From Escherichia coli (GTDB lineage: Bacteria; Pseudomonadota; Gammaproteobacteria; Enterobacterales; Enterobacteriaceae): DNA of 64,000 nucleotides. The first letter of the stretch is position 1, and each line of letters opens with the position of its first letter. Positions 7,233-44,331 of the stretch are shown piece after piece. A program made the translations under genes and the position numbers. Location of the stretch: assembly GCF_024223415.1 (NCBI RefSeq), contig NZ_CP100500.1. One strand, 5' to 3'. A model generated the notes under the pieces. That model was not told where the DNA came from and searched no databases. It saw nothing but the letters and a program-made list of their open reading frames with translations.

Positions 7233-8297
7233 ATGAAAAACGCCACATGCTTAACTGACGATCAACGCTGGCAATCTGTCTTAGCCCGCGACCCGAATGC
7301 CGACGGCGAATTCGTTTTCGCCGTGCGCACCACAGGCATCTTTTGCCGTCCGTCTTGCCGCGCCAGACATGCTTTGCGGGAAAACGTCTCCTTCTACGCA
7401 AATGCCAGCGAGGCACTCGCCGCCGGATTTCGCCCCTGCAAACGCTGCCAACCTGATAAAGCCAATGCCCAGCAACATCGGTTGGATAAAATCACCCACG
7501 CGTGTCGACTGCTGGAACAGGAAACGCCTGTAACGCTGGAAGCCTTAGCCGACCAGGTGGCGATGAGTCCGTTCCATCTGCATCGGTTGTTTAAAGCGAC
7601 TACCGGAATGACGCCTAAAGCCTGGCAACAGGCCTGGCGCGCTCGCCGTTTGCGCGAATCGCTGGCGAAAGGGGAGAGCGTGAAGACGTCTATTCTTAAT
7701 GCCGGATTCCCCGACAGCAGCAGTTACTACCGCAAAGCCGATGAAACGCTGGGCATGACGGCTAAACAATTCCGTCACGGTGGCGAAAATCTGGCGGTGC
7801 GTTACGCGCTGGCTGATTGTGAGCTGGGTCGTTGCCTGGTGGCAGAAAGCGAGCGGGGGATTTGCGCGATATTGCTGGGCGATGATGACGCGACACTAAT
7901 CAGCGAGTTGCAGCAGATGTTTCCCGCTGCCGACAACGCGCCTGCCGATCTGACGTTTCAGCAACATGTGCGTGAAGTGATCGCCAGCCTCAATCAACGC
8001 GATACGCCGCTGACGTTACCGCTGGATATTCGCGGCACTGCTTTTCAGCAACAAGTCTGGCAGGCACTGCGCACGATACCTTGCGGTGAAACCGTCAGTT
8101 ATCAGCAACTGGCTAACGCCATCGGCAAACCGAAAGCGGTACGGGCCGTTGCCAGTGCCTGTGCCGCCAACAAGCTGGCTATCGTAATTCCCTGTCATCG
8201 AGTGGTCCGTGGTGATGGCACACTTTCCGGTTACCGCTGGGGCGTGTCGCGTAAAGCGCAACTGCTGCGCCGCGAAGCTGAAAATGAGGAGAGGTAA
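7233..8297 (+). CDS. ada: Bifunctional Ada regulator / O6-methylguanine-DNA methyltransferase
   Basis: The N-terminal Zn Cys cluster (FCRPSCRARHA...PCKRCQP), an AraC HTH and the C-terminal PCHRV active site are present. An Ada-box-like AATTAAAGCGCAAG lies upstream at about 7154. Confidence 0.95.
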   Translation: MKNATCLTDDQRWQSVLARDPNADGEFVFAVRTTGIFCRPSCRARHALRENVSFYANASEALAAGFRPCKRCQPDKANAQQHRLDKITHACRLLEQETPVTLEALADQVAMSPFHLHRLFKATTGMTPKAWQQAWRARRLRESLAKGESVKTSILNAGFPDSSSYYRKADETLGMTAKQFRHGGENLAVRYALADCELGRCLVAESERGICAILLGDDDATLISELQQMFPAADNAPADLTFQQHVREVIASLNQRDTPLTLPLDIRGTAFQQQVWQALRTIPCGETVSYQQLANAIGKPKAVRAVASACAANKLAIVIPCHRVVRGDGTLSGYRWGVSRKAQLLRREAENEER

Positions 8298-8947
8298 TGT
8301 TGGATCTGTTTGCCGATGCTGAACCGTGGCAAGAGCCACTGGCGGCTGGTGCGGTGATTTTACGGCGTTTTGCTTTTAACGCTGCAGAGCAACTAATCCG
8401 CGATATTAATGACGTTGCCAGCCAGTCGCCGTTTCGCCAGATGGTCACCCCCGGGGGATATACCATGTCGGTGGCGATGACCAACTGTGGGCATCTGGGC
8501 TGGACGACCCATCGGCAAGGTTATCTCTATTCGCCCATTGATCCGCAAACAAATAAACCGTGGCCCGCCATGCCGCAGAGTTTTCATAATTTATGTCAAC
8601 GTGCGGCTACGGCGGCGGGCTATCCAGATTTCCAGCCAGATGTTTGTCTTATCAACCGCTACGCTCCTGGCGCGAAACTGTCGCTGCATCAGGATAAAGA
8701 CGAACCGGATCTGCGCGCGCCAATTGTTTCTGTTTCTCTGGGCTTACCCGCGATTTTTCAATTTGGTGGCCTGAAACGTAATGATCCGCTCAAACGTTTG
8801 TTGTTGGAACATGGCGATGTGGTGGTATGGGGCGGTGAATCGCGGCTGTTTTATCACGGTATTCAACCGTTGAAAGCGGGGTTTCATCCACTCACCACCG
8901 ACTGCCGCTACAACCTGACATTCCGTCAGGCAGGTAAAAAAGAATAA
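8297..8947 (+). CDS. alkB: Fe(II)/2-oxoglutarate DNA dioxygenase AlkB
   Basis: This is a 216-aa ORF whose start overlaps the ada stop (ATG/TAA overlap). It carries the HQDKDE and RYNLTFR motifs. Confidence 0.95.
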   Translation: MLDLFADAEPWQEPLAAGAVILRRFAFNAAEQLIRDINDVASQSPFRQMVTPGGYTMSVAMTNCGHLGWTTHRQGYLYSPIDPQTNKPWPAMPQSFHNLCQRAATAAGYPDFQPDVCLINRYAPGAKLSLHQDKDEPDLRAPIVSVSLGLPAIFQFGGLKRNDPLKRLLLEHGDVVVWGGESRLFYHGIQPLKAGFHPLTTDCRYNLTFRQAGKKE

Positions 8948-33163: not shown

Positions 33164-34219
33164 TTAAGCAATTTTGACGGTAACAAATTTGCGAATATCT
33201 GCCGGTACCGGCTGCGGTGCGCTGTGCGTCTGCACGTACTCAATCGCCGGATCGCCGTCCTCAATCCAGTTTTTCGGGTAGTACATGTTTTGCGTTGCGC
33301 CCGTTCTTACCGCTTCCTGATCCATAATCGCACCATATGCCACAAGCCCTTTATTGTTGGTGTTACCCAGGACAAGCAAATCAGGCTCAAGGAAATATTT
33401 TTCGGTGCCGTCGCTGTCAGTGTATTTGCCGGAATAGACGATAAGGGCCAGATCACCAAGATAGCCTTTAAAGCTCACCACTTCGCCCAGGTTTTTACAG
33501 GCCAGCTCGGCGGCGGATTCTGAGCCACGGTAAAGATCGTACAGTTCACGGAATTTTTTAAAGCTGCGTAATGTGCGCCATGCCTCACCGCCCATAATCA
33601 TGACGTTGGCGGGGCAACCTGCCTGATCAGCATAAAGCTCGATGTCATAGATTGGGTCGTGCATGTCTTTATCCTGCTGGGACCATTTTTTACCACTGGC
33701 CTGCTGTATGATGCAGTTTTCCGGTATTTTCCAGTCGATTTCATAGCGTTCTATGCCTTCGCCCTCAATGATGTTTTTTCCGGTCGTTACCGCATTCACC
33801 GCCAGCCATTCCACGCGCGCCTTAATGGCGTTTATCTGGCGGCGCATGTTGCCAGTAATCAGGCGCATACGGCGGTAAGTTGGATCGTTAAGCTGTGCCG
33901 GATCTTCTCCAGCCATGCGCATGATGGTCTTTGTTGGATCGATTTCGTGCTTTGGCTTCATGTAGCCTGGTTTAATCGTGCTGGTTTCGTACCCTTTATC
34001 GCGCTGGACCTGACTACCCACCATAGGAGAACAGAACGCTGACATCGTAACCTCTTCAATGTCCAGGGTGTCCAGCATGATGTTTTGGGTGTTGAAGGTC
34101 GCCACGTTCGGGAAAAACAGCGTGGTAAACAGCGGACTAAATTTAAATTCCGAAATATCCCCGCGATTCAGGTACGCGAAAAGCTGGTTAGTTGTAAGTG
34201 CCGTTGCTTTGCCTGTCAT
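33164..34219 (-). CDS. Major capsid protein, lambda gpE family
   Basis: FKFSPLFTTLFF, PGYMKPKHEIDP, DPTYRRMRLI, IVYSGKY and YPKNWIEDGDPAIEY align with lambda gpE FKFDPLFLRLFF, PGYVKPKHEVNP, DPAYRRRRII, VVYSGQY and YPKNWVTTGDPAREF. Confidence 0.9.
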   Translation of the reverse strand: MTGKATALTTNQLFAYLNRGDISEFKFSPLFTTLFFPNVATFNTQNIMLDTLDIEEVTMSAFCSPMVGSQVQRDKGYETSTIKPGYMKPKHEIDPTKTIMRMAGEDPAQLNDPTYRRMRLITGNMRRQINAIKARVEWLAVNAVTTGKNIIEGEGIERYEIDWKIPENCIIQQASGKKWSQQDKDMHDPIYDIELYADQAGCPANVMIMGGEAWRTLRSFKKFRELYDLYRGSESAAELACKNLGEVVSFKGYLGDLALIVYSGKYTDSDGTEKYFLEPDLLVLGNTNNKGLVAYGAIMDQEAVRTGATQNMYYPKNWIEDGDPAIEYVQTHSAPQPVPADIRKFVTVKIA

Positions 34220-34425
34220 TATTCACCTCCGTGAACCTGATTGATACCCAGCGCCGCACGTAAATAGGTACGCACCTGCCAGCCTGTTGACGGCTCAACC
34301 ATCGCCAGCGGATCAAGTCCTGCCGCAATGCCTGCTTTTACATTCTGCTGGTGGCGTTCCTTGAGCGCCTCCACGATGTCGGGGCTTATGTAGACCGTCA
34401 CCCCGCCTTTTTTCTCTTCTGCCAT
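34219..34425 (-). CDS. Hypothetical 68-aa protein, first gene of the capsid operon
   Basis: The RBS AGAGGAA precedes the ATG, and the stop overlaps the capsid gene start (ATGA coupling). Confidence 0.6.
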   Translation of the reverse strand: MAEEKKGGVTVYISPDIVEALKERHQQNVKAGIAAGLDPLAMVEPSTGWQVRTYLRAALGINQVHGGE

Positions 34426-34459
34426 AGTCAGAAATTCCTCTTTGACTTAAAAAATCATA

Positions 34460-34509
34460 ACTGGATGTTCATCCAGTCCTGATTATAATCATGATTGCAT
34501 TTTGCGCAA
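34460..34509 (-). promoter_or_regulatory. Candidate sigma70 promoter of the capsid operon with an overlapping palindromic operator
   Basis: The minus strand reads TTGCGC (34509-34504), a 16-nt spacer, then TATAAT (34487-34482). The inverted repeat ACTGGATG-aa-CATCCAGT (34477-34460) follows at about +1. Confidence 0.5.
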
Positions 34510-34592
34510 CAATATTGAGTTACGTTGCAAATTATGAAATGATTATCCCGATCATGTGTGCCAGTGCACCATAAAAAACCTCGTATACAAAA

Positions 34593-34630
34593 GCCCGATA
34601 AGCCCCCTGTGACCTTATCGGGCTTTTTTT
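34593..34630. terminator. Hairpin terminator upstream of the capsid promoter
   Basis: GCCCGATAAG-11 nt-CTTATCGGGC hairpin followed by TTTTTTT on the plus strand and by TTTTG on the minus strand. Confidence 0.6.
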
Positions 34631-34636
34631 AGGCGT

Positions 34637-34658
34637 AAAAAAGCCGGATTGCTCCGGC
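34637..34658 (-). terminator. Rho-independent terminator after the ProQ/FinO-like gene
   Basis: The minus strand reads GCCGGA-gcaa-TCCGGC followed by TTTTTT, 26 nt after the stop at 34684. Confidence 0.75.
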
Positions 34659-34683
34659 TTCGTCTCTTCATGTGGTCAGGGTT

Positions 34684-35278
34684 TTATGCTTTCCGTACGC
34701 CCGAGGAACTGGCATTTTTCAGAATAATATTATGCCCTGCTGGTGGCTTACCGTTATGCTTATTTTCTGCCTTCATGTTTCTGCGCTCCTGCTGTTTTTT
34801 CTTCATCTCATCCAGTCGCTTCCCCGCGTTCAACTGGTGCTCCTGTGTCACCTCCCCGCACGGATGGCCTTTCAGGTCGTAACGCACGCCACCAGCCATC
34901 AGGGAACGGTAATATCGCACTGAACTGACATAATACGCCAGCGTTGCGCGAAGCGCTCCCTGACCTAATGAAATACCTCTCGCAGTAATATCCTCCATCA
35001 GGTCATCAAATATGCCAACCTTAAGCGGTCTGGGCGATTCCTGGCTGAAAAGTTCAGGCCAGAGCGCGGCAAGGCGTTCAACGCGTCTGATATTTTTTTT
35101 CCGGCTCTTTTCTGATTTGCGTTTTGCTGCCGTCTTCTGTTGTGTTTTCTGCTCGCGGCTCTGCTTTTGCGCTGGTGTGGTTTTATCCGGCTGTTCAGCC
35201 TCCTGCGTCTTTTTCTGCGGTGTGCCGTATATGCCTTTTGGTTTTCGGTTAATGGTCAGCTTTGTCATGTTCTCCCCC
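34684..35278 (-). CDS. ProQ/FinO-domain RNA-binding protein with a lysine-rich N-terminal tail
   Basis: PRPLKVGIFDDL...LRATLAYYVSSVRYYRSL..GGVRYDLKGHPCGEVTQEH aligns with E. coli ProQ ARPLKIGIFQDL...LRSALRLYTSSWRYLYGV..GATRVDLDGNPCGELDEQH. The preferred start is MTKLTINRK at 35278, behind the RBS AGGGGGAG. The track ORF extends to 35364. Confidence 0.8.
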
Positions 35279-35347
35279 TTTGTGCTGTTCCACCAGCGGC
35301 ATCTGCTACCCCGTGTCGCTCCCGCTGGTGTCGTGTTTCCCCGCCTG

Positions 35348-35668
35348 TTAATAACCGTCATCATTTACGTTATCAGGGTAATCACGCCATATTTCATCAG
35401 TAAGCGACGGTAGCCCCATCTGTTGTATTGTCCTGTCTGCGGCCCTTCTGACTGCGTGAACATCATAACGGTTTTCAGGTATCGGGCGCTTTGCCTTCCT
35501 GATACATTCCCTTGCTCTCATTGCCGCAAGTTCTCTGTGCCTGTCTTCCTGAAGAGTAATCATCACATCCTGCCACCTTCTGGCAGCCCGTCGCCACAGT
35601 CCCCTGCTCTCGAGTTCTTCTGCTGTCGCGTCGCTTATTGTCCGGTTCTTCGGTGTGCTGTTGTTCAT
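35348..35668 (-). CDS. PerC-family (PerC/Pch-like) transcriptional regulator
   Basis: This is a 106-aa ORF. The N-terminal AEELESRGLWRRAARRW motif resembles the PerC signature. The call is made from memory of the family only. Confidence 0.55.
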   Translation of the reverse strand: MNNSTPKNRTISDATAEELESRGLWRRAARRWQDVMITLQEDRHRELAAMRARECIRKAKRPIPENRYDVHAVRRAADRTIQQMGLPSLTDEIWRDYPDNVNDDGY

Positions 35669-35685
35669 GTTGCTCCCCGCCTGAT

Positions 35686-36096
35686 TCAGAAGGGTATATC
35701 ATCTCCGTAGGGGTCATCGCCTCCCGCTGGTGGCTCATTCCCCTGTGTGCCTGTGGTTTTGCGTCTGTTCCCGCCATGACGTGCCGCACGCGCACTGATT
35801 ACGCTGTCTGCGATAACCTGCCAGCCCTGCCGCGTTTCCCCGTTCTGTCCGGTCCACTGGCTCACCTGCATGTTACCCGCCACGCTCAGGAGTTCACCTT
35901 TGCGGTGCTTTGCCAGTGCTTCGGCCTGTCTGCCAAACGCCAGCACAGATAACCACATCGTCGCCGTTCCGTCATCTGCCTGGCTGCACGGAAGGGGGAC
36001 CGCCATACTCGCCATCGCCATTTGTGTCCCCTTGCTGGTGGTCTTTAACTGCGGGTCAGCCACCAGCCGCCCGTAAGCCGCTATCTGTGCTGTCAT
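35686..36096 (-). CDS. ssb: Single-stranded DNA-binding protein
   Basis: It has an OB-fold N-terminus (GRLVADPQLKTTSKG...WLSVLAFGRQAE), a Gly/Pro-rich linker and the canonical acidic tip DDIPF. Confidence 0.85.
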   Translation of the reverse strand: MTAQIAAYGRLVADPQLKTTSKGTQMAMASMAVPLPCSQADDGTATMWLSVLAFGRQAEALAKHRKGELLSVAGNMQVSQWTGQNGETRQGWQVIADSVISARAARHGGNRRKTTGTQGNEPPAGGDDPYGDDIPF

Positions 36097-36344
36097 GCTG
36101 TATGCTCTCCGGTTTTAACGTTGATGGTTGTCACCTGTTCCGCTCCGGCAATCTCCCGTTCTGTCAGCGTGGCAAAATTTGCCGCTACCGTTGTCATGAA
36201 TGCGCTTATCAGTTCGGGATGTGCTTTCGCGTATCCTTCTCCCGCGTGGCGGTCTATCGTTCTGATTGCCACCTTTAAGGCGTGCTCTGTCATGTCTAAC
36301 GCTTTATATTTTGGCGCTGTCTTATCTCTGGTTTTTCTGTTCAT
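36093..36344 (-). CDS. Hypothetical protein (83 aa from MNRKTRDK)
   Basis: The track ORF is 36093..36374. Its first 10 codons are translated iteron repeats, so the start at 36344 is preferred. It overlaps the ssb start. Confidence 0.55.
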   Translation of the reverse strand: MNRKTRDKTAPKYKALDMTEHALKVAIRTIDRHAGEGYAKAHPELISAFMTTVAANFATLTEREIAGAEQVTTINVKTGEHTA

Positions 36345-36555
36345 TCCCCACCACTCCCCACTTTTGCTCCCCACTTTTTAAATTCCCCACTTGCTCCCCA
36401 CCTCGTTTTTTGAGTGAATCTAATGCTTTGTTTTTCATTGCGTTTTTTACTCCCCACTTTTTTGGATGTATACAGGTGGGAAAGTGGGGAATTATGTTTC
36501 AATTTTGTTAAATTCCCCACTCTCCCCACTTTTACTACCCACTTTTTACAGTGGG
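36345..36555. repeat. Iteron-type replication origin: about 13 copies of YCCCCAC(T) flanking an AT-rich spacer
   Basis: Direct copies are tccccac, ctccccact (x4), ttccccac (x2), tctccccact and tacccact. Inverted copies are gtggga, gtgggga and gtgggta. The AT-rich core is at 36411-36448. The region lies immediately 3' of the helicase gene. Confidence 0.7.
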
Positions 36556-37961
36556 TAAACATCATCCCCATCGACACAAATCACGCCGTCTTTTTCCAGC
36601 TTGGACAGCCAGCGCCGGAAGTGCTTCATCTCATACCCCAGCTTTTTCATATCGTCGCGGAGAAGGGCGATAGTGCATGGCTCTTTGTGTGCCGTCCGCG
36701 TTCTGATGCACTGCCATAGCGCGGTATGGTTTTCCGTCTTGTTGCCTGCCTCCTCGATGCGCTCCAGTTCAACGGGAGAGCGCGGCTTATCAACCACCAC
36801 CAGCGACGTGATTAACTCCCCGTCAGCGTCGGTAAAAAGCTCCACCACGCGTAAATCGTAGGCGGCCTCTTTCAGTTCCTCCGCGTCCTTCATTTTGGTG
36901 CAGGATATAACCAGGGCTTTACTGTCTGCACCTTCTCGGCGAATACGGTATTCAGCGTCCAGAGATGCACGAAATGCACTGGAACCACGCGCCCCCTTTG
37001 TTTCATCCTTGCCGGAATGGTGGACCACCAGCACCGTGGCCCCTGTGCGTCGTTTCAGGTCGTCACATCCACGGATAAACGCCCCCATATCCCGCGCGTC
37101 ATTTTCATCATTACCGCCAAAGCAACGCGCCAGCGTATCCAGAATAATCATGCGTACCGGTTTACCCGTTTCCCGTTCAACCTGGCGGGAAGCGATAACC
37201 ATTTCATCAACATCAAGCGGGGCTGCCGGAAAAATCGGGCGGTTTACCAGGTACAGATTTTTCACCCGTTCATCATTAACGATTTCCCATGCCTTGATAC
37301 GACGGGGGACACCAATGCCACCTTCACCGACAACATACATCACCGAACCATGCGCCACCCTGCGGCCTCCCCAGTGGCGCCCCGTGGCAACATGACACGC
37401 CCAGGAACACGCAAGGAATGATTTATAGGAACCGCTCGCACCGTATGTGCTGCACAATGAATTAGCCGGAATCACGCCCTTAACGACATAATCAAGCTGT
37501 GTGTCGTATCCTGCAGATCCAATGCTCATGGGTAGCGTGGTTTTTCGCTGGCTGTATTGCTCATCAGTAAGTATTTCCCCGCGCTCTGCCTGTTCGCGGA
37601 TCCGTTGCAGGTAGTCGCGCCATTCCTCCCGCTTCTGGCTGTGCATTCCCTCGGGGTAATAACTCGCATCCCGTATACCTGCCGCCGCCAGTTTTTGCCC
37701 GATGGCATTAATATTTGATGGCTTGATGTGGCCTGCCTTGTACAGCCGGACACAATAGCGACCATCGTCGATAATTTTCAGGTCTGCCAGTTCGTCAAGC
37801 TGACTGTCTCCCAGCCATACTGGCGGGACGTTATCGCCAGCAAGTCGCCCGTCCTGTTCCTGCCATTGTTTTGCGTGCGCCCAGGCATCACTACCTGCAA
37901 AAATAATGACTTCGGTCATTTTGTTGTGTGGCTGTTTTTTTAAGTTCGGTGCCAGTTTCAT
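36546..37961 (-). CDS. Replication initiator helicase (RecA-fold, RepA/DnaB-like AAA_25 type) with a C-terminal winged-helix domain
   Basis: This is a 471-aa ORF with a Walker A-like GASGSYKS, Walker B MIILDTLARCFGG and the motif VLVVHHSGKD. The start is coupled to the upstream gene (ATGA). Confidence 0.8.
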   Translation of the reverse strand: MKLAPNLKKQPHNKMTEVIIFAGSDAWAHAKQWQEQDGRLAGDNVPPVWLGDSQLDELADLKIIDDGRYCVRLYKAGHIKPSNINAIGQKLAAAGIRDASYYPEGMHSQKREEWRDYLQRIREQAERGEILTDEQYSQRKTTLPMSIGSAGYDTQLDYVVKGVIPANSLCSTYGASGSYKSFLACSWACHVATGRHWGGRRVAHGSVMYVVGEGGIGVPRRIKAWEIVNDERVKNLYLVNRPIFPAAPLDVDEMVIASRQVERETGKPVRMIILDTLARCFGGNDENDARDMGAFIRGCDDLKRRTGATVLVVHHSGKDETKGARGSSAFRASLDAEYRIRREGADSKALVISCTKMKDAEELKEAAYDLRVVELFTDADGELITSLVVVDKPRSPVELERIEEAGNKTENHTALWQCIRTRTAHKEPCTIALLRDDMKKLGYEMKHFRRWLSKLEKDGVICVDGDDVYPL

Positions 37962-38257
37962 TTTTTATCCCTGAATCCGTTAATCATGGTTTTCATCTTC
38001 TGAATATTGGCGCGTGCTTTCTCCCTGCTGGTTGGTTTACTGCGGGGCGCTGCCTGTACCAGAGAAAAATCACGCCGGAACTGATAAACAGGCATCACGC
38101 AGTCATATTCGTAGCCATCACGGCGGTAAGTGATGCGCCGTTCTGCCACGCCTTTAATCGTTACCGTACCGCCGTAGTTATCACGGAAAATATCGCCGGG
38201 ACGGATTTCAGGCCGAGCGGGGCCGCTGGCAGTAAAGCCAGAATTTTTCTTTTTCAT
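37958..38257 (-). CDS. Hypothetical 99-aa protein (possibly DUF4222-like)
   Basis: The ORF is coupled to the helicase gene, and small proteins of this type commonly precede satellite primase/helicase genes. The family assignment is only a recollection. Confidence 0.55.
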   Translation of the reverse strand: MKKKNSGFTASGPARPEIRPGDIFRDNYGGTVTIKGVAERRITYRRDGYEYDCVMPVYQFRRDFSLVQAAPRSKPTSREKARANIQKMKTMINGFRDKK

Positions 38258-38261
38258 GGTT

Positions 38262-38462
38262 TTATTTTCCTGTCAGTGATTCCGGCTTTATTCCGGCGCG
38301 AATACAGGCTTCAGAAAAAAAAGCCAGAGAACCAATAACCTCATTATTTCTAAGGCGGCATTGCGATTTCACTTTCCCTTTATCCAGGAATATCAAAACG
38401 CGCCCCGTATAATCAGATGGCACATTAAGCACTACAGGTAAGTGCGCTTCATGATTATTCAT
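38262..38462 (-). CDS. Hypothetical 66-aa protein
   Basis: The start MNNHEAHLPV at 38462 lies behind the RBS CAGGAGGTGG and overlaps the upstream stop (ATGAATAA). The track ORF extends to 38531. Confidence 0.6.
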   Translation of the reverse strand: MNNHEAHLPVVLNVPSDYTGRVLIFLDKGKVKSQCRLRNNEVIGSLAFFSEACIRAGIKPESLTGK

Positions 38463-38898
38463 GGCTAACCACCTCCTGGAATTTTCTTCTGTAACGCGCC
38501 TCTGCCACATATTCAGCATAGTCCGACGCAATATTGAGAATATCGCTACCCGTTCCTGAATGTTCGGCGGTTTCCAGTAAAAAACATGCAGCTTTTACCA
38601 TGTCAGCAACACATAACAGCGCAATATCTGTATCTTCCGGTGTGCCATCAAATTCCTGTTTCAGGGCATTAAAACGATCATCACGCATAACCCCATATTC
38701 ACAATCAGCAATCAGGATGGCTTTGGCCTCATTCAGTGCCATATCAGCGGTAAGCTGTGCGTAGGCCAGCAAATGCGGGATTATTGCCCCTGTATATTCC
38801 GGCTCTCTGATAATGTGGTCGGATGTGTTGATTAAATAGTTTGTGCGAAAAATGCACCTGTAACCATCAGTTAACAACGGATATACAGGGGGGACCAT
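38455..38898 (-). CDS. Hypothetical protein (about 147 aa if started at MVPPVY; the true start is uncertain)
   Basis: The C-terminal ~130 aa have protein-like composition (..ALNEAKAILIADCEYGVMRDDRFNALKQEFDGTPEDTDIALLCVADMVKAACFLLETAEH..) and the stop is coupled to the next gene. No strong RBS precedes 38898. Confidence 0.5.
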   Translation of the reverse strand: MVPPVYPLLTDGYRCIFRTNYLINTSDHIIREPEYTGAIIPHLLAYAQLTADMALNEAKAILIADCEYGVMRDDRFNALKQEFDGTPEDTDIALLCVADMVKAACFLLETAEHSGTGSDILNIASDYAEYVAEARYRRKFQEVVSHE

Positions 38899-39681
38899 GA
38901 ATGATAAGGGGGTGCCGTTTGATGTGCTCCTGCAAAAGCTGAATGCTGCACGCGCCGCAAGGGAACGTGAGCGCATGAGTAATAACCCTGTCCCTCCTGA
39001 ATTACCTCGCCCTGAACATTTTCCGCTTGAGGATTTCATCAGGGGACGAATCCGAACAAAACGATAACCGCCGCCGTGATATGAGGCATCACGACGCAAT
39101 GCATTACAGGTGAGCACCATGAACAAATCCATATTATCCCCCACAGTTCTGGACGTAAACACAAAGCAGCGACAGATATTATTACGCGCCGTCATTAAAG
39201 CCAGACACGAGAAATTAAACCAAATCTTAAAATAAGATACGCCGCTACCGCTGTAAGTCTTCATCAGAAACAGAAAACGCCAGAGCAGATGAGCACGGAG
39301 GTAACTCTTTATGAAAATAAACGAATCAGGGGAAATTACCGAAGCCAGCGTGGTACGCCAGCGGAGGCGGGAACGACGGGTACGGCCCCCCGCGCCATCC
39401 GATAATTTCCCGCTTGAGCGCTTCATCAGTGAACGGCCCCGCATACGCTGGAACGGCACAACCCCATACCCCGAGGAGAGACAGACAAAAAACAAACAGC
39501 GATGATGAAATCTGGAGGCCAATACCATCACGCAGCCATCAGGAGATTGCTGACGCGCTTCCTGTTCGCTGGTGGCCTCGATGGTAATCACGCGCGGTTG
39601 TGCAGTGCTCAGGGCGATAAAACGCCACACAAAGGCCGTTTGTGTGTGCGCAAGGCGTGGGGTATGCTGTGTTCCAGCCAT
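38455..39681 (-). CDS. Icd-like (host cell-division inhibitor-like) N-terminus continuing without a stop into the downstream gene. This may not be a single real protein.
   Basis: A strong RBS AGGAG lies 7 nt before the ATG at 39681. The sequence MAGTQHTPRLAHTQTAFVWRFIALSTAQPRVITIEATSEQEARQQ resembles Icd-like proteins of P4-type elements. The following ~260 codons are R/S/C-rich and junk-like, yet stop-free. Confidence 0.35.
   Translation of the reverse strand: MAGTQHTPRLAHTQTAFVWRFIALSTAQPRVITIEATSEQEARQQSPDGCVMVLASRFHHRCLFFVCLSSGYGVVPFQRMRGRSLMKRSSGKLSDGAGGRTRRSRLRWRTTLASVISPDSFIFIKSYLRAHLLWRFLFLMKTYSGSGVSYFKIWFNFSCLALMTARNNICRCFVFTSRTVGDNMDLFMVLTCNALRRDASYHGGGYRFVRIRPLMKSSSGKCSGRGNSGGTGLLLMRSRSLAARAAFSFCRSTSNGTPLSFMVPPVYPLLTDGYRCIFRTNYLINTSDHIIREPEYTGAIIPHLLAYAQLTADMALNEAKAILIADCEYGVMRDDRFNALKQEFDGTPEDTDIALLCVADMVKAACFLLETAEHSGTGSDILNIASDYAEYVAEARYRRKFQEVVSHE
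38897..39067 (+). CDS. Candidate small ORF (56 aa), paralogous to 39311..39505
   Basis: A G-rich RBS (GGGGGG) precedes the ATG. It shares ..FPLE.FI..R.RIR with the second ORF. It is antisense to the long minus-strand frame. Confidence 0.3.
   Translation: MNDKGVPFDVLLQKLNAARAARERERMSNNPVPPELPRPEHFPLEDFIRGRIRTKR
39311..39505 (+). CDS. Candidate small ORF (64 aa), paralogous to 38897..39067
   Basis: The RBS GGAGG lies 8 nt before the ATG. It shares the NFPLERFISERPRIR block with the other ORF. Confidence 0.3.
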   Translation: MKINESGEITEASVVRQRRRERRVRPPAPSDNFPLERFISERPRIRWNGTTPYPEERQTKNKQR

Positions 39682-39808
39682 AATCGTTACTCCTGTTAAC
39701 GGTTTGGTTAGACGCCCTGCATGTGTGCCACCACTGCGGGGCGTTGTTTTTGTGGTGTCATTGGTATACATTGTCACCTTAATGGCATTATCACTACAGA
39801 GGTTTATC

Positions 39809-39985
39809 ATGTCAACCAATGACAACAAAAAAGAAAGATTTTCCGTACAACTACGCCTAGACGCAGATTTGTTCGAGCGTTTAAGTATTGCCATGAAAGA
39901 AGATGGCGACGATAACCGATCTGGATGGATCAAAAGGCTTTTACGACGCGAATTAGATAAACGCGGCATTGAGTCAAAAAGCTGA
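39809..39985 (+). CDS. Ribbon-helix-helix (Arc/MetJ/CopG-like) DNA-binding protein and candidate island repressor. It is the only convincing plus-strand gene in the island.
   Basis: MSTNDNKKERFSVQLRLDADLFERLSIAMKEDGDDNRSGWIKRLLRRELDKRG has the beta-strand/helix/helix pattern typical of RHH proteins. An AGAGG RBS precedes it, and a terminator follows at 40079-40107. Confidence 0.6.
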   Translation: MSTNDNKKERFSVQLRLDADLFERLSIAMKEDGDDNRSGWIKRLLRRELDKRGIESKS

Positions 39986-40078
39986 CAGCCAACCAGCAAG
40001 CCAGCACACTGATCACATTGCCCACCAGCCGCAAATGTGGCATTGTTGGTGATGCTTTTGTTTTCCCTTGTTCCCACT

Positions 40079-40107
40079 GGCGACCCTTTTGCGGTCGCCT
40101 TTGTTTT
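40079..40107 (+). terminator. Plus-strand rho-independent terminator downstream of the RHH gene
   Basis: GGCGACC-cttttgc-GGTCGCC hairpin followed by TTTGTTTT. Confidence 0.65.
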
Positions 40108-40203
40108 GCCTGTTATCCGGCAATTGTGGCGCTTCGCCACACGGTTTATATAACCCCACTGCTCAGATTCATTTTTTGCGCAGTAGGTTAATTGTTCGCA
40201 AGG

Positions 40204-40230
40204 GCGGCTCCTTATCGGGGCCGCTTTTTT
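40204..40230 (+). terminator. Second plus-strand terminator, possibly the 3' end of a small antisense RNA
   Basis: GCGGCTCC-ttatc-GGGGCCGC hairpin followed by TTTTTT. It is not functional in the minus orientation, where no U-run follows. Confidence 0.55.
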
Positions 40231-40256
40231 CGTGTTTGTCATATCTGTGATACCCG

Positions 40257-40463
40257 TTAAGCAGCCGTTCCGCGTGCTTCCTGTTCGCGTTCTTTCTGCC
40301 AGGCCAACACATCATCCTCATACCATCCGCGACGGCGTAAACCAACGCGAAAACCCTGCGGAAATTCTCCGGCGTTGATCATGCTTTGCAGCGTGCTGTC
40401 TGCCTTGATGTGGATAATTTTTTTTACTTCCTGGCGAAAGATAATTTTTCTGATTGCTTCCAT
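40257..40463 (-). CDS. alpA: AlpA-family regulator/excisionase (MerR-type wHTH)
   Basis: This is a 68-aa ORF. The sequence ...STLQSMINAGEFPQGFRVGLRRRGWYEDDVLAWQ is typical of the AlpA/prophage CP4-57 regulatory family. Confidence 0.8.
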   Translation of the reverse strand: MEAIRKIIFRQEVKKIIHIKADSTLQSMINAGEFPQGFRVGLRRRGWYEDDVLAWQKEREQEARGTAA

Positions 40464-40481
40464 CGTGATTTACCTTGTGAA

Positions 40482-40498
40482 TCCGGTGTATTCCGGTG
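40482..40498. repeat. Two TCCGGTG motifs 10 bp apart just upstream of alpA
   Basis: The sequence is aTCCGGTGtatTCCGGTGac. The same heptamer is phased at 10 bp three times at 42386-42412, next to the att core. Confidence 0.6.
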
Positions 40499-40596
40499 AC
40501 AAATACGGTAAATCATCGGATATGGGTAAAAACAGTTCCCACCGTTTTTAAACGGTATACACCGTTTTTTATATTGATGATTTGAAATGGAATTAT

Positions 40597-40619
40597 AAAA
40601 AAAGCGGCATTTCTGCCGC
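40597..40619 (-). terminator. Rho-independent terminator after the int-orf83 unit
   Basis: The minus strand reads GCGGCA-gaaa-TGCCGC followed by TTTTTTT. Confidence 0.75.
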
Positions 40620-40630
40620 TTCCAGGATTG

Positions 40631-40882
40631 TTACCGCCATTTTTTGGGCCTGCCTCCGATCTTCATAGATGCCGGACGTACGACCTTATCAATACTTACC
40701 GCCAGATTTCTGGAAGCGCCACGGGATACCAGAAAATCTACTACCTGTTTTTTTGATGGGGCCGTCGTCCTGTCCTCCGGATCGTAGGTTGACCAAAATT
40801 CATGCTGAACCATCAGGGCCAGTTGCAGCCCGTCGCAATTGCATCTGATATTTTTTTGCATCTTAACGGTTTCATGTTTCAC
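40631..40882 (-). CDS. Hypothetical 83-aa protein downstream of int
   Basis: The ORF ends in a basic C-terminus (GGRPKKWR). I do not recognise the family. Confidence 0.5.
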   Translation of the reverse strand: MKHETVKMQKNIRCNCDGLQLALMVQHEFWSTYDPEDRTTAPSKKQVVDFLVSRGASRNLAVSIDKVVRPASMKIGGRPKKWR

Positions 40883-40959
40883 GGCCTTGTCGTTAAATTT
40901 GATGCAATTATACGACGGTTTTACATGGTTTTCGTAGTTTTTACTGGTTTTCTGTACAG

Positions 40960-42219
40960 CTACACGGCTCGGATACCCCTTTTACCACTGGCGAGGGTTA
41001 CGCCCGTCGCCGCAGCCTCGACAAATTCGCCCCACCAGCGCATCAGCACGATGCGTTTTTCTATGTAGTTGCTCCGGTTGTATGCCCGTCTAACTTCGTT
41101 GGTGTCGACGTGGGCAAGTGCCGCCTCTATTACGTCCGGCTCGAATCCTTCCTCGTTCGCTGCTGTGCTGAATATGGCGCGTAATCCATGAGACACCAGC
41201 ACGCCAGCGAATCCCATACGCCGCAATGCTGCGTTAGCTGTCTGGCTGTTCATCGGCTGCTGTGGGTCTTTCAGACTTGGGAAAACGTAATTGCGGTGGT
41301 GGCTGATTGGTTTCATGGCCTCCAGCACCGCCATAGCCTGACCGGAAAGCGGGATAACGTGATCCCTGCGCATCTTCATGCGTCCGGCAGGTATCGTCCA
41401 TTGCTTCGCGTCCAGGTTGATTTCATCCCACCGCGTTGATGACGCTTCGGCGGGACGGGTTACGGTCAGTAACTGCCATTCAATCAGTAATCTGGTCTGC
41501 CGTTCTGTTGCCGATACTGATAAAGCCTGCATAAGCTCGGGCAGCTGTTCGGGGCGGATTGTTGGCATATGTTTTTTTACAGGTGAGGGAAACGCCTTAC
41601 GCACATTCATAGCCGGATTGGCATCAATCAGCCCACTGTTGGCGGCGTAATCCATTACCTCATTAACGCGCTGTAAAACCCGCTTGAGTGTTTCCAGGTT
41701 GCCGCGCTCCTTGATGGGGGTAAGCACTTCAACGAACCTTCGGGCGGTGAGGGTATCTATTGGCGTGTTGCCGATGAACGGGAATACATATTTATCCAGC
41801 GAACGCCAGATGTCTTTAATCGTGTTGGGGGCCAGATTCTGGCTGATTTTCACCTGGTACCATGCCGCCGCCACATTTTCGAACGTGTTCCCTTGTCTTC
41901 GGGCCTCTGTCTCTCTTTTTTGCCTCTCGTGGTCCTGCGGGTCAGTTCCGGCACTGATTAACGTCCTGTACTCGCTACGGCGTTTTCTGGCATCAGCCAG
42001 GGAAACATCTTCAAGCGATCCAAAACTCAGCAATATTCTTTTTTTGTCCGATGGTCGGTAGTAGGAAAATCTCCAGAGTTTTGATCCAGACGGTTTGACC
42101 AGGAGAAAAAGCCCTCCGCCGTCCTGCAGGGTGTACTCCTTTTGCGCTGGTCTGGCTGCTTTGATCTGCACTGTGGTTAATGGGTGTGTTTTTCTCGCCA
42201 TATGTCTATGATTCCACAC
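40960..42219 (-). CDS. int: Tyrosine integrase, P4/CP4-57 (DUF4102 N-terminal arm-binding) type
   Basis: The N-terminus reads LTTVQIKAARPAQKEYTLQDGGGLFLLVKPSGSKLWRFSY. The catalytic region contains HGLRAIFST..ALAHV and RAYNRSNY. An alternative start MARKTHP lies at 42201. The gene is adjacent to the tRNA. Confidence 0.9.
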   Translation of the reverse strand: MWNHRHMARKTHPLTTVQIKAARPAQKEYTLQDGGGLFLLVKPSGSKLWRFSYYRPSDKKRILLSFGSLEDVSLADARKRRSEYRTLISAGTDPQDHERQKRETEARRQGNTFENVAAAWYQVKISQNLAPNTIKDIWRSLDKYVFPFIGNTPIDTLTARRFVEVLTPIKERGNLETLKRVLQRVNEVMDYAANSGLIDANPAMNVRKAFPSPVKKHMPTIRPEQLPELMQALSVSATERQTRLLIEWQLLTVTRPAEASSTRWDEINLDAKQWTIPAGRMKMRRDHVIPLSGQAMAVLEAMKPISHHRNYVFPSLKDPQQPMNSQTANAALRRMGFAGVLVSHGLRAIFSTAANEEGFEPDVIEAALAHVDTNEVRRAYNRSNYIEKRIVLMRWWGEFVEAAATGVTLASGKRGIRAV

Positions 42220-42235
42220 GAAAAAACAGGGTTTT

Positions 42236-42285
42236 AGTTATACGGCTTTAGTTATACGTCAGCCCGTATAACTAAACGTATAACT
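42236..42285. repeat. Four CGTATAACT motifs (two inverted, two direct), candidate integrase arm-type sites
   Basis: AGTTATACG at 42236 and 42250; CGTATAACT at 42265 and 42277. They lie directly upstream of int. Confidence 0.6.
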
Positions 42286-42385
42286 AAAAAATCCGGCTGA
42301 TAGCTTATAAATCCGGTGATGTTCGGTGACTAAAAAACATAAAAAAACCCGCCAATCAAGTGATTAGCGGGTTATCCCTGTCTTA

Positions 42386-42412
42386 TCCGGTGCTTTCCGG
42401 TGATATCCGGTG
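42386..42412. repeat. Three TCCGGTG motifs at exact 10-bp phasing abutting the tRNA 3' end
   Basis: The sequence is taTCCGGTGcttTCCGGTGataTCCGGTGgg. Confidence 0.65.
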
Positions 42413-42419
42413 GGCGATT

Positions 42420-42496
42420 TGGTCGGCACGAGAGGATTTGAACCTCCGACCCCCGACACCCCATGACGGTGCGCTACCAGGCTGCGCTACGTGCCG
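42420..42496 (-). tRNA. proL: tRNA-Pro (anticodon GGG)
   Basis: The minus strand reads CGGCACGTAGCGCAGCCTGGTAGCGCACCGTCATGGGGTGTCGGGGGTCGGAGGTTCAAATCCTCTCGTGCCGACCA. It is 77 nt with cloverleaf-compatible arms and an encoded CCA. Confidence 0.92.
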
Positions 42497-42570
42497 ACTC
42501 GTGGCTGTTAATACTACCGTTTTCCACACCGATTGCAAGTAAGATATTTCGCTAACTGATTTATAATTAA

Positions 42571-44331
42571 TCAGTTAGCGATAAAACGCTTCTCGTCTGT
42601 CAGTACTTGCAATAACAAACTTAACTGTGGTTTTTCATCTTTCACTCTTTCACCACGTAAGTTGTAAGTGCGGTATTTACCGTTATTGTTCAGCACCAGC
42701 GTCTTTTTCGGGGTGGTAATTGCCAGCGTATCGTTATCCGCTGCGGTAACCCAGTAATGACGGCGTTGAGGGTTGAACAAATCCTGACCTTGCGAATATT
42801 CGCTGGCAGGTGTGCTGACATGTAGCAGGCGTTGCATCAGCGTCGTCATCAGATCGGTATGATCAGTCAGCGCATTAATACGCTGCGCCGGCGTGCCTGG
42901 CCAGTGAATCACTAATGGCACCTGCAGGTGACCGTGGGACCAGTCAAAGGTTTCTTCCTCTTCGCTCAGTGGAATACCCCGACCGGCAGTGATAATCACC
43001 ACCGTATTGCCCAGTTTGCCAGAATCACGCAGTGCATTGAGCACGCGGTTGATCTGGTCATCGACATTGCCTGCCGCCCGGCTATATTTCCGTGCAAATG
43101 CCTGCTGATTGCTGTCGTCAATGTTGGTGCCATTGAAAGAGACCCACGAGAACCAGCGGTTATCTTCTTGTGCGTAGCGTCCCAGCCAGTTGATCCACTG
43201 CGTGGCGGTCTGCTCGTCGGATTGGGTGCGTACGCTCGGCATCGAGAAATCTGACAACAATGCCTGACGATAAAGCGGACTGGTAAAGCCATCTGACGAG
43301 AATAGGCCCAACTGATAGCCTTGCTGGTTGAGAGCGGTAATTAACGCCGCAGGCGTACGGGTCGACAGAATGCCGTCCATATAGCTCGGTGAGATGCCAT
43401 AGAACAGGCCAAAGATGCCGTTGTCTGTAGTGTTGCCGGAGCTCATATGGCGCGTGAACGAAATATTTTGCTCAGCAAAACCTGCCAGCGCAGGCATCTG
43501 CTTCTCGAAGCGTGAGTAGTTCAGGCCATCGACAGTAATCAACAAGACATTCTGCCCGGTGCCCATATCGCGATAGCGCAGTTCGCTTAACGGATACTGA
43601 ACGGAAACGGCGTCTGGATTACCTTGCTCAATAAGACGGCGTTGATACTCCTGTGCATCAAGCAGGCCATGCTTTTCAAGAAAACGTCGCGCCGTCATCG
43701 GGTACGAAAGCGGCAGGTTAGCGCGCTGCATGGTGATCGGGCGATAGAAGTTGGCATCGGCCCAGATATACACCACATGCGAGGCGATAAAGGCGATAAA
43801 TAAGAATGCGGCCAGCGGACGCGCGAAGCGCCGACGACGCGTCAGGCTGCGCAGCTTTTGCCAGCTCCACGTCGCAAACACCAGTTCAAGCAATAAAATA
43901 ACCGGCACGCTGATGAACATCAGCTGCCAGTCGCGCGCCATCTCATTTTCGTCTGGGTTGATAACCAGTTGCCAGACGATGGGATTAAGATGGAGATGGA
44001 AACGAGTAAAGACTTCGCTATCGATCAGTAATAGCGTCATTCCCGCCGTTGCCAGAATGACGGACAAAAACCTCATCAGCCTCTGGGAGCCGACGATAAA
44101 GGTCAGCGGGAAGAGGATCAGCAAGTAGGTGGCGAACACCAGGAAGCTGAAATGGCCGATAATGCTTACGTAGGAATAAATGCGACCAGCAAGCGTGGTC
44201 GGCCAGTCGGCGATAAACAGGTAACGGCTGCCAATGACGAGCGAAAGCAGAATATTGAACAGTGCAAACCAGTGCCCCCAACTGACCATCTGGGAGACTT
44301 TTTCACGGTAGCGCTGACGATGAGTTACCAT
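42571..44331 (-). CDS. yejM: Inner-membrane LPS/cardiolipin homeostasis protein YejM (PbgA/LapC)
   Basis: This is a 586-aa ORF with five N-terminal transmembrane segments and a sulfatase-like periplasmic domain. Confidence 0.92.
   Translation of the reverse strand: MVTHRQRYREKVSQMVSWGHWFALFNILLSLVIGSRYLFIADWPTTLAGRIYSYVSIIGHFSFLVFATYLLILFPLTFIVGSQRLMRFLSVILATAGMTLLLIDSEVFTRFHLHLNPIVWQLVINPDENEMARDWQLMFISVPVILLLELVFATWSWQKLRSLTRRRRFARPLAAFLFIAFIASHVVYIWADANFYRPITMQRANLPLSYPMTARRFLEKHGLLDAQEYQRRLIEQGNPDAVSVQYPLSELRYRDMGTGQNVLLITVDGLNYSRFEKQMPALAGFAEQNISFTRHMSSGNTTDNGIFGLFYGISPSYMDGILSTRTPAALITALNQQGYQLGLFSSDGFTSPLYRQALLSDFSMPSVRTQSDEQTATQWINWLGRYAQEDNRWFSWVSFNGTNIDDSNQQAFARKYSRAAGNVDDQINRVLNALRDSGKLGNTVVIITAGRGIPLSEEEETFDWSHGHLQVPLVIHWPGTPAQRINALTDHTDLMTTLMQRLLHVSTPASEYSQGQDLFNPQRRHYWVTAADNDTLAITTPKKTLVLNNNGKYRTYNLRGERVKDEKPQLSLLLQVLTDEKRFIAN

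Follow-up and report, generated by a model that had tools for sequence, protein, structure and literature searches.

How should a stretch of DNA be read when open frames run along both of its strands? The question is raised by 64,000 nucleotides of the Escherichia coli chromosome (contig NZ_CP100500.1; this whole stretch is referred to here as the window), which carry a satellite resembling phage-inducible chromosomal islands (PICIs) and phage P4 at a tRNA-Pro gene (42423-42496) adjoining yejM. In this island, two small plus-strand open reading frames (ORFs) of 56 and 64 aa, which we call ORF56 and ORF64, share a short repeat, and both ORFs and the repeats fall within a single long gene call on the minus strand. 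An identical copy of the island is found in strain Ch1, where the annotated island genes are all on the minus strand and comprise an integrase, an AlpA-type helix-turn-helix gene, the long call itself (a 595-aa "host cell division inhibitor Icd-like protein", 38455-40242) and DUF4222, together with a RepA-family helicase, SSB, PerC, ProQ/FinO and capsid genes. We consider it probable that the small ORFs represent a small satellite gene family, present here as two diverged paralogues and a decayed third copy, that lies antisense within a stop-avoiding ORF resembling eta of P4. The coordinates of the features discussed are collected in Table 1.

A preliminary description of this locus, made from the sequence alone, had noticed the repeat, which is real, but had placed the start of each copy one base too low; the matching 23-nt motifs run from 39020 to 39042 and from 39407 to 39429. 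A repeat search extends the two copies to 31 nt with 81% identity at a spacing of 387 nt. When the motif was sought elsewhere in the island, as that description had proposed, exactly two occurrences with three or fewer mismatches were found across the 64 kb of the window, where shuffled sequence would give 0.02; the 31-nt repeat is not explained by chance. The 56-aa and 64-aa plus-strand ORFs were borne out both by reading the sequence and by the ORF list, their arginine-rich middles (RERER and RRRERR) are present, and the G-rich ribosome-binding sites ascribed to them correspond to purine-rich stretches before the two ATGs, acaggggggaccATG and gcacggaggtaactctttATG. Between themselves, the ORF56 and ORF64 copies differ by an in-frame 6-nt indel (GRIR versus ERPRIR). 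The plus-strand ORFs that start at 38897, 39110 and 39311 all occupy one frame (2 mod 3), as does a ribbon-helix-helix (RHH) repressor-like ORF at 39809, and this frame has its third codon positions in common with the minus-strand ORF at 38455-40242. Because these third positions coincide, many of the differences between the repeats look synonymous on both strands, in agreement with the partial double synonymy that had been remarked upon. The decayed third copy had been overlooked.

The case for ORF56 and ORF64 as genes rests on a family to which both can be assigned. A 58-nt match led to a related island (L093, strain Z1323MEC0001) in which the NCBI Prokaryotic Genome Annotation Pipeline (PGAP) has called a tandem of four plus-strand genes; these encode 62-82 aa, share one frame and each end in a version of the same motif (PPPLEVFL, FALEDFV, FALEDFL and FALDNFL). 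These four genes and the two window ORFs made up the profile used to search for the family. Its members are 50-92 aa long and have a common architecture, with a start of the form M-[TNSD], a variable arginine-rich helix, a proline-rich linker, the motif F-[A/P]-L-[E/D]-x-F-[ILV], which is a short amphipathic helix, and a basic tail that is often KYPRRLKATKNRPPG. Alignments, and a structural model in the case of ORF64, place the two window ORFs in this architecture except for the canonical KYPRRLKATKNRPPG tail, which both lack. The AlphaFold2 model of ORF64 (pLDDT 67.6, pTM 0.27) consists of a helix at 5-22, coil, a second helix at 34-41 that corresponds to the motif, and coil. When a hidden Markov model built without the lineage of the window was run against 1512 six-frame segments of the window, only ORF56 (21.9 bits, E=1.5e-5) and ORF64 (15.1 bits, E=0.0019) were matched. 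As judged from their sequences, ORF56 and ORF64 are diverged paralogues of a satellite small-protein family, and the repeat is the core that encodes its motif. The earlier proposal of paralogous small plus-strand ORFs is upheld by this model and by the conservation of amino acids alongside synonymous variation of their codons.

The family is represented in the protein databases, though as nothing more than a set of hypothetical proteins. There are 19 clusters in a database of 5.8 billion proteins, all of them E. coli "hypothetical proteins" and one of them that of ORF56, and 21 representative clusters among 1.84 billion proteins; ORF56 is identical to one database entry (P0006, "hypothetical protein", E. 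coli). A search of the 5.8-billion-protein database with ORF64 gave no match, not even to ORF64 itself, because gene callers systematically overlook this family. Related islands on viral contigs were fetched through an unrelated gene (phrog_2512) rather than through the family, and about 57 of these 77 islands carry a member, amounting to 56 distinct DNA sequences. In the PICI/P4-like islands of E. coli and Shigella the family genes and the replication operon are always on opposite strands. Aligned with one another, all members have a conserved ATG preceded by ACAGG-N8, an arrangement from which ORF56 and ORF64 deviate; N-terminal halves have been swapped among members that share one tail, and ORF56, ORF64 and the other members have diverged to about 30% identity. 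Searches of the small ORFs against Pfam, NCBIfam, PHROGs and PADLOC returned nothing credible, matches to CRF (E=0.003, below the cut-off), Gp5.5-like (E=0.017) and PD-T4-7 (E=0.008) being noise, and a PDB profile search returned nothing. Among genome contigs, the peptide patterns of P0003 found no relative and the pattern of the hairpin that precedes most family genes had one match only, in a Shigella flexneri genome. The family appears to be confined to E. coli and Shigella. A motif scan of viral contigs also gave seven loci with a single match each (L002, L003, L005, L006, L008, L010 and L011), which is about the number expected by chance.

Some members have been annotated elsewhere and allow a closer comparison. 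WP_071827874.1 (62 aa, from O157:H7 islands), WP_075825937.1, WP_075825936.1 and WP_024196219.1 share both the architecture and the motif with the window ORFs, and proteins like WP_071827874 stand in the same strand relation to the Icd-like ORF and replication operon, and in the same frame relation to a long antisense ORF. Unlike these members, ORF56 and ORF64 are highly divergent, the most so in the family, with proline in place of alanine in the motif and neither the KYPRRLKATKNRPPG tail nor the canonical hairpin. They also differ in location, since they lie downstream of the Icd-like ORF whereas the WP_071827874-like genes lie upstream of it.

Given that the two reading frames share their third positions, the variation within the family can be used to ask which strand is constrained. 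The codons of the motif vary synonymously (TTT/TTC, GCC/GCG/GCT/GCA, CTT/CTC/TTG and GAG/GAA), and the minus-strand reading of the same positions is variable (K/N/R-S-S-R/S-A/G-K/N). We classified 146 variant events within subfamilies by their effect on each strand. Changes that are synonymous on both strands were enriched 1.8-fold and those non-synonymous on both stood at 0.77-fold, whilst 12 changes were synonymous on the plus strand only, against 7.3 expected (1.64-fold), and seven on the minus strand only, against 11.9 expected (0.59-fold). In this small sample, then, the plus frame seems to carry the stronger amino-acid constraint.

The minus strand shows constraint of another kind. Throughout the 56 sequences, the antisense frame that shares third positions with the family genes has no stop in 3630 codons, compared with 221 and 95 stops in the other antisense frames. 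In the equivalent frame of control genes from the window, stops occur at 0.037 per codon and the longest stop-free run is 251 codons. Synonymous recoding of 16 representatives (1028 codons) led us to expect 10.9-15 stops, the lowest counts in 2000 trials being 3-6, and shuffling of their codon order raised the expectation to 20.6; none is observed. The avoidance can be followed to single codons, as the codon before TAN ends in C or T in 0 of 19 cases and the codon before CAN ends in T in 0 of 70. The small ORF has the same frame as the RHH gene in 42 of 45 cases, and the antisense frame of the RHH gene is also depleted of stops. The reciprocal recoding of the minus frame (10.7-11.9 stops expected and none observed) was not used, as the plus ORFs had been chosen for being open. 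These codon statistics indicate that the minus frame is under selection to stay open, through codon choice, and in the window it stays open even across the dead third copy.

Stop avoidance of this order invites the reading that only the minus strand codes, the 595-aa ORF being a genuine Bro-network/Eta-like protein with internal repeats (…LMK[SR]SSGK…) and the plus-strand ORFs its shadows. PGAP does call this ORF a gene, it runs for 618 stop-free codons with highly significant avoidance of stops, Eta of P4 is a real translated ORF of such a type, and the plus-strand ORFs are so short that chance alone would leave a single one open with a probability of about 0.09 (at 0.037 stops per codon). 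However, the minus-frame translation of the region is Cys/Ser/Arg/Phe-rich, of low complexity and not conserved, one near-identical cluster is its sole relative in the database, and outside the Icd-like stretch the 595-aa ORF has no match in Pfam, NCBIfam or PADLOC. The paralogues keep F-A-L-E-x-F in the plus frame where the minus frame varies, the changes that are synonymous on the plus strand alone outnumber those on the minus strand alone, and the plus ORFs are framed by the conserved ATG with its ACAGG-N8 and by a defined terminator. Their N-terminal swaps with retention of the C-terminal tail are those of modular proteins, and in other genomes the plus-strand genes are annotated by PGAP. 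We regard coding by the minus strand alone as quite improbable. The preliminary description had held that the coding strand could not be decided; instead, both strands show coding-type constraint, stronger at the amino-acid level in the plus frame. The constraint on the plus strand is that of a protein, and the constraint on the minus strand is that of an open leader which resembles eta and is probably translated.

In most of the related loci an open frame starts where alpA ends, crosses the region opposite the small ORF and the RHH gene, and closes where the Icd-like domain does. In the window the long ORF has the RHH gene and all three small-ORF units on its opposite strand. The corresponding call (WP_244567439.1, 38455-40242) matches the Icd-like model at residues 204-245 only, and masks the RHH gene and the small ORFs. 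The nested Icd/Kil-like ORF that accounts for the match scores 52.5 bits against NCBIfam NF033153 and has 28% identity to P4 Kil (E=2e-4). Just within its 5' part, at 39626-39646 on the minus strand, there is a terminator-like hairpin (CACACAAACGGCCTTTGTGTG and GCGTTTTATC) which might, by analogy, be an attenuation point comparable to the terminator region of P4 immunity.

The likeness to P4 extends to the arrangement of the operon. In P4, vis is followed by eta (8168-8812, 214 aa), and Kil is formed by the last 65 residues of eta. Eta is described as being fully translated only from the upstream late promoter, and its translation as preventing termination and so allowing read-through into the downstream genes (Forti et al. 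1999, as summarised in PMC10111431). As with P4 eta/kil and its internal promoter PLE, the long ORF here begins at the end of an alpA/vis homologue, contains a strong internal promoter (in our case a promoter-like site), has a Kil/Icd-like ORF nested distally in frame and is followed by replication genes. As in P4, the eta-type frame is seemingly needed as a translated tract and not for its sequence. There are differences, in that P4 eta has a Phage_ASH domain and the CI RNA/seqA elements but no opposite-strand genes, the reverse of what is found in the window ORF, which is also longer than P4 eta (595 codons against 214 aa) and continues past its Icd-like part into a truncated phrog_2512 domain. 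By analogy with what is reported for P4 eta, transcripts that start at the upstream alpA promoter would be shielded from Rho-dependent termination by ribosomes at work on the eta-like ORF, and transcription would in this way be carried into the replication genes. Under such a read-through mechanism only the openness of the minus frame would be selected, and opposite-strand genes would sit in the frame that interferes least.

The P4 comparison also bears on a suggestion of the preliminary description, namely that the repeats are protein- or RNA-binding sites in the leader of the replication operon, such as seqA/seqC-like targets of CI or C4 RNA or repressor sites, with the ORFs incidental. The immunity systems of P1/P7 (c4-icd-ant) and P4 (CI; Rfam C4 RF01695, isrK RF01394 and c4-a1b1 RF03163) likewise have a leader before an Icd-like ORF and two dispersed direct repeats as targets. 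In some related islands, C4 (69-78 bits) and isrK (48-66 bits) are indeed found on the operon strand (L093 1638-2385, L094 1980-2165, L028 3198-3386 and L060 3148-3333), L093 having two C4 copies, and most copies use CTT for the leucine of the motif. Against this, the C4/isrK elements of those islands occupy a different place, the interval that separates the plus-strand unit from the Icd-like ORF, and the window, like L020 and L004, has neither; since they occur in some islands and are lacking in these three, versions of the module with immunity RNA and with RHH only coexist. Unlike in P1/P7 c4 and P4 CI, no complementary partner is present in the window, where no inverted copy of the motif that could serve as seqB was found, the best match of 10 nt being at chance level. 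The RHH candidate operators are different palindromes located at the promoter. The repeats behave as codons, diverging synonymously with retention of their amino acids, including a change from CTT to TTG for leucine. That the repeats act as cis sites thus seems very improbable.

The surroundings of the family in other islands help to explain what is found in the window. In a typical plus-strand unit (L020, L094), a palindromic promoter/operator is followed by the RHH gene, a hairpin element of about 55 nt with ACAGG-N8-ATG, the small ORF and an intrinsic terminator that is convergent with alpA. Homologous RHH genes precede the small ORF in the related islands, where the normal copy number is one, directly after the RHH repressor gene and before the shared terminator, with tandem arrays at times. 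In O157:H7 islands a single copy (WP_071827874.1) stands alone ahead of the same terminator. The first of the two terminator-like hairpins of the window (40079-40099) recurs in L093 and L107, where it comes after the last small ORF. In the window, the RHH gene directly precedes the terminators and the array of small ORFs is on the other side of the Icd-like ORF; thus, whilst the small ORF of the relatives is the second gene of the RHH unit, here the small ORFs are apart from the RHH gene. At 39748-39832 there are a 24-nt inverted repeat (TTTTGTGGTGTCATTGGTATACAT / ATGTCAACCAATGACAACAAAAAA) and TGTCA-N5-TGACA palindromes, which flank and overlap the start codon of the RHH ORF as well as the -35 of the strong promoter on the minus strand, and which are probably repressor operators. 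PICI/SaPI-type RHH repressor operons similarly have an RHH gene with palindromic candidate operators over the main promoter, but here, unlike in those, the whole repressor unit is embedded antisense in an eta-like ORF. The closest relatives (L004 and L015, 98% identical in the region) have an extra 63-aa member near the RHH/alpA end (L004 6830-7075, L015 2010-2255), a canonical position at which the window has none, so that the copy number and position of the family genes evidently change fast.

The third copy, psiORF41, is broken by a TAA at 39233 and another at 39254, the latter within the motif (PL*VFI), and the 41-aa ORF at 39110/39119-39235 is its front part. The pre-ORF element ahead of it, which has 84.5% identity over 58 nt to L093 and precedes most family members, is complete; ORF56 has only ACAGG-N7-ATG and ORF64 has a degenerate version with GGAGG. 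The 9-bp consensus hairpin of this element is mostly conserved in sequence, with weak covariation and a few compensatory changes. One such change, from C-G to T-A, occurs in the O157:H7 copy (L107 3160-3212), which reads GCGCTGTG…CTACAGCGC where others have GCGCCGTG…CTACGGCGC, and the loop has GAGG-like purines in every case. The hairpin may serve for attenuation between the RHH gene and the small ORF, for processing, or for the binding of a protein.

The edges of the array bear on its place within the long ORF. In the relatives fetched via phrog_2512, this gene follows the Icd-like ORF after about 110-126 nt, and given so short a gap the array represents an insertion of about 580 nt in the present lineage. 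It is inserted between the Icd-like domain and the truncated phrog_2512 domain and has been kept in frame. The phrog_2512 gene of the relatives (for example L020 3902-4366) has its own ATG and about 35 more residues; the window counterpart lacks these first codons and the start codon, and by its sequence can be translated in no other way than as the C-terminal end of the long ORF. A further plus-strand ORF of 65 aa (39502-39699) is antisense to the Icd-like ORF, its ATG overlapping the stop of ORF64 (ATGATGA). It is in another frame than the remaining plus-strand ORFs and of low complexity, a similar shadow ORF is present in L020, and it is probably not a gene. Outside the array, an 83-aa minus-strand ORF lies between integrase and alpA (40631-40882) and is annotated as a hypothetical protein in Ch1.

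As to function, the position of the family behind a repressor gene, its constant motif and its diversifying N-termini suggest a regulatory adaptor. The small proteins would be regulators of the maintenance module, recognising a constant partner by their constant C-terminal motif and owing their specificity to the fast-evolving N-terminal helix. A more far-reaching version can be formulated, in which a satellite maintenance operon of RHH and F-A-L-E-x-F proteins is obligatorily antisense in a translated eta-like ORF that is selected only for openness, and in which the small proteins, with their diversifying N-terminal helices and occasional arrays of three to four, are sensors of the helper phage or specificity components of derepression. 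The locus would then be a bacterial case of two-strand coding over several hundred codons. We offer this version tentatively, and consider it rather doubtful that it holds in full.

The reading of the locus as an antisense gene family within an eta-like ORF has several observations against it. The per-strand comparison of non-synonymous and synonymous change (dN/dS) that the preliminary description had called for favours the plus frame, with omega of about 0.42 against about 0.58 for the minus frame, but overall constraint is weak, and the contrast comes from 19 discordant events only, with a binomial p estimated at about 0.02-0.03. Because of their common descent, the family sequences are less independent than the stop-avoidance statistics make them look. 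In some loci the open frame ends shortly before the Icd-like ORF. The likeness to P4 is qualified by the lack of a Pfam match to Phage_ASH in the 595-aa ORF, when the counterpart ORF of L093 does have this domain (4.6e-16), and by an Rfam search of 34000-44000 at E<=1, which found tRNA-Pro and a chance match but no C4, isrK or c4-a1b1. With respect to expression, no consensus promoter was found upstream of ORF56, and the -10 of the junction element is poor here (AATGCA against AATATT in L093). Finally, with no KYPRRLKATKNRPPG tail, no usual hairpin and a pseudogene for a neighbour, ORF56 and ORF64 may be decaying.

Taken further, the last point would make ORF56 and ORF64 non-functional relics of a recombined module, kept only because damage to them would break an essential minus frame. 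The already dead psiORF41 is consistent with this, as are the lack of a promoter match, the missing tail and hairpin and the atypical site downstream of the Icd-like ORF, and in L015 a 1-nt insertion in a C-run truncates ORF56, which may be a sequencing error. The 600-bp region is moreover rare, being present in nine of 5426 complete E. coli genomes, and all nine are at least 99% identical; DNA and protein searches for it in phage and plasmid collections gave no match. On the other hand, divergence to about 30% identity has cost neither ORF its start codon, its Shine-Dalgarno-like sequence, its motif or its basic tail, and point mutations could have created plus-strand stops that leave the minus frame intact, as they did in psiORF41 but not in ORF56 or ORF64. 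We consider it unlikely that the two ORFs are relics.

Table 1. Features of the island region, in window coordinates.
Feature	Position	Strand	Description
ORF56	38897..39067	+	56 aa, MNDKG...PEHFPLEDFIRGRIRTKR; intact divergent family member; from sequence read and ORF list
ORF64	39311..39505	+	64 aa, MKINE...RQRRRERRVRPPAPSDNFPLERFISERPRIRW... and ...SDNFPLERFISERPRIRW...; GGAGG ahead of start; intact divergent family member
Repeat copy 1	39018..39048	+	codons for H-F-P-L-E-D-F-I-R-G
Repeat copy 2	39405..39435	+	codons for N-F-P-L-E-R-F-I-S-E
Repeat copy 3	39248-39267	+	75% copy, inside psiORF41
psiORF41	39119..39292	+	decayed family member; aligns without indels to 67-aa gene of L093
Pre-ORF element	39066..39118	+	hairpin stem 39075-39080 / 39088-39093, loop atGAGGc, then ACAGG-N8-ATG
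Junction element	38817..38853	.	GGTCGGATGTGTTG-N8-GTTTGTGCGAAAAAT; edge of small-ORF array; shared only with L093 and O157-type islands
RHH repressor-like ORF	39809..39985	+	58 aa; weak RHH_1/NikR-N/YlcI matches; antisense in long ORF
Two terminator-like hairpins	40079..40228 (40079-40099, 40200-40228)	+	end the plus-strand unit
Eta-like ORF	38455..40242	-	595 codons; stop-to-stop 38458-40311, 618 codons; PGAP "Icd-like protein"
alpA/vis-like gene	40257..40463	-	TAA 40259-40257, 14 nt ahead of long-ORF ATG (40242)
Nested Icd/Kil-like ORF	39508..39684	-	in frame with long ORF; own GGAG-N9-ATG (ATG 39682-39680)
Sigma-70 promoter-like site	39787..39815	-	TTGACA-17-GATAAT, 11/12; upstream of Icd-like ORF, within long ORF
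Candidate operators	39748-39771 / 39809-39832		palindromic, overlap promoter-like site; inverted repeat I1
phrog_2512 domain	38455..38817	-	fused in frame to long ORF; E=5.5e-50, profile positions 36-153 of 154

If the locus is correctly read as an antisense gene family within an eta-like ORF, the first consequence is a correction to annotation, as the 595-aa "Icd-like protein" call would hide two or three small genes. The family also offers unusually clear comparative evidence for a long bacterial frame that is kept open by selection whilst its amino-acid sequence is free. This would fit, by analogy, the model for P4 in which it is translation of eta, and not the Eta protein, that prevents Rho-dependent termination, and it would extend the logic of eta to PICI-type satellites that use a protein repressor in place of CI RNA. 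For the islands themselves, an uncharacterised, satellite-restricted family would lie at their regulatory heart, which may provide a handle on how PICIs of the RHH type are maintained and induced in E. coli.

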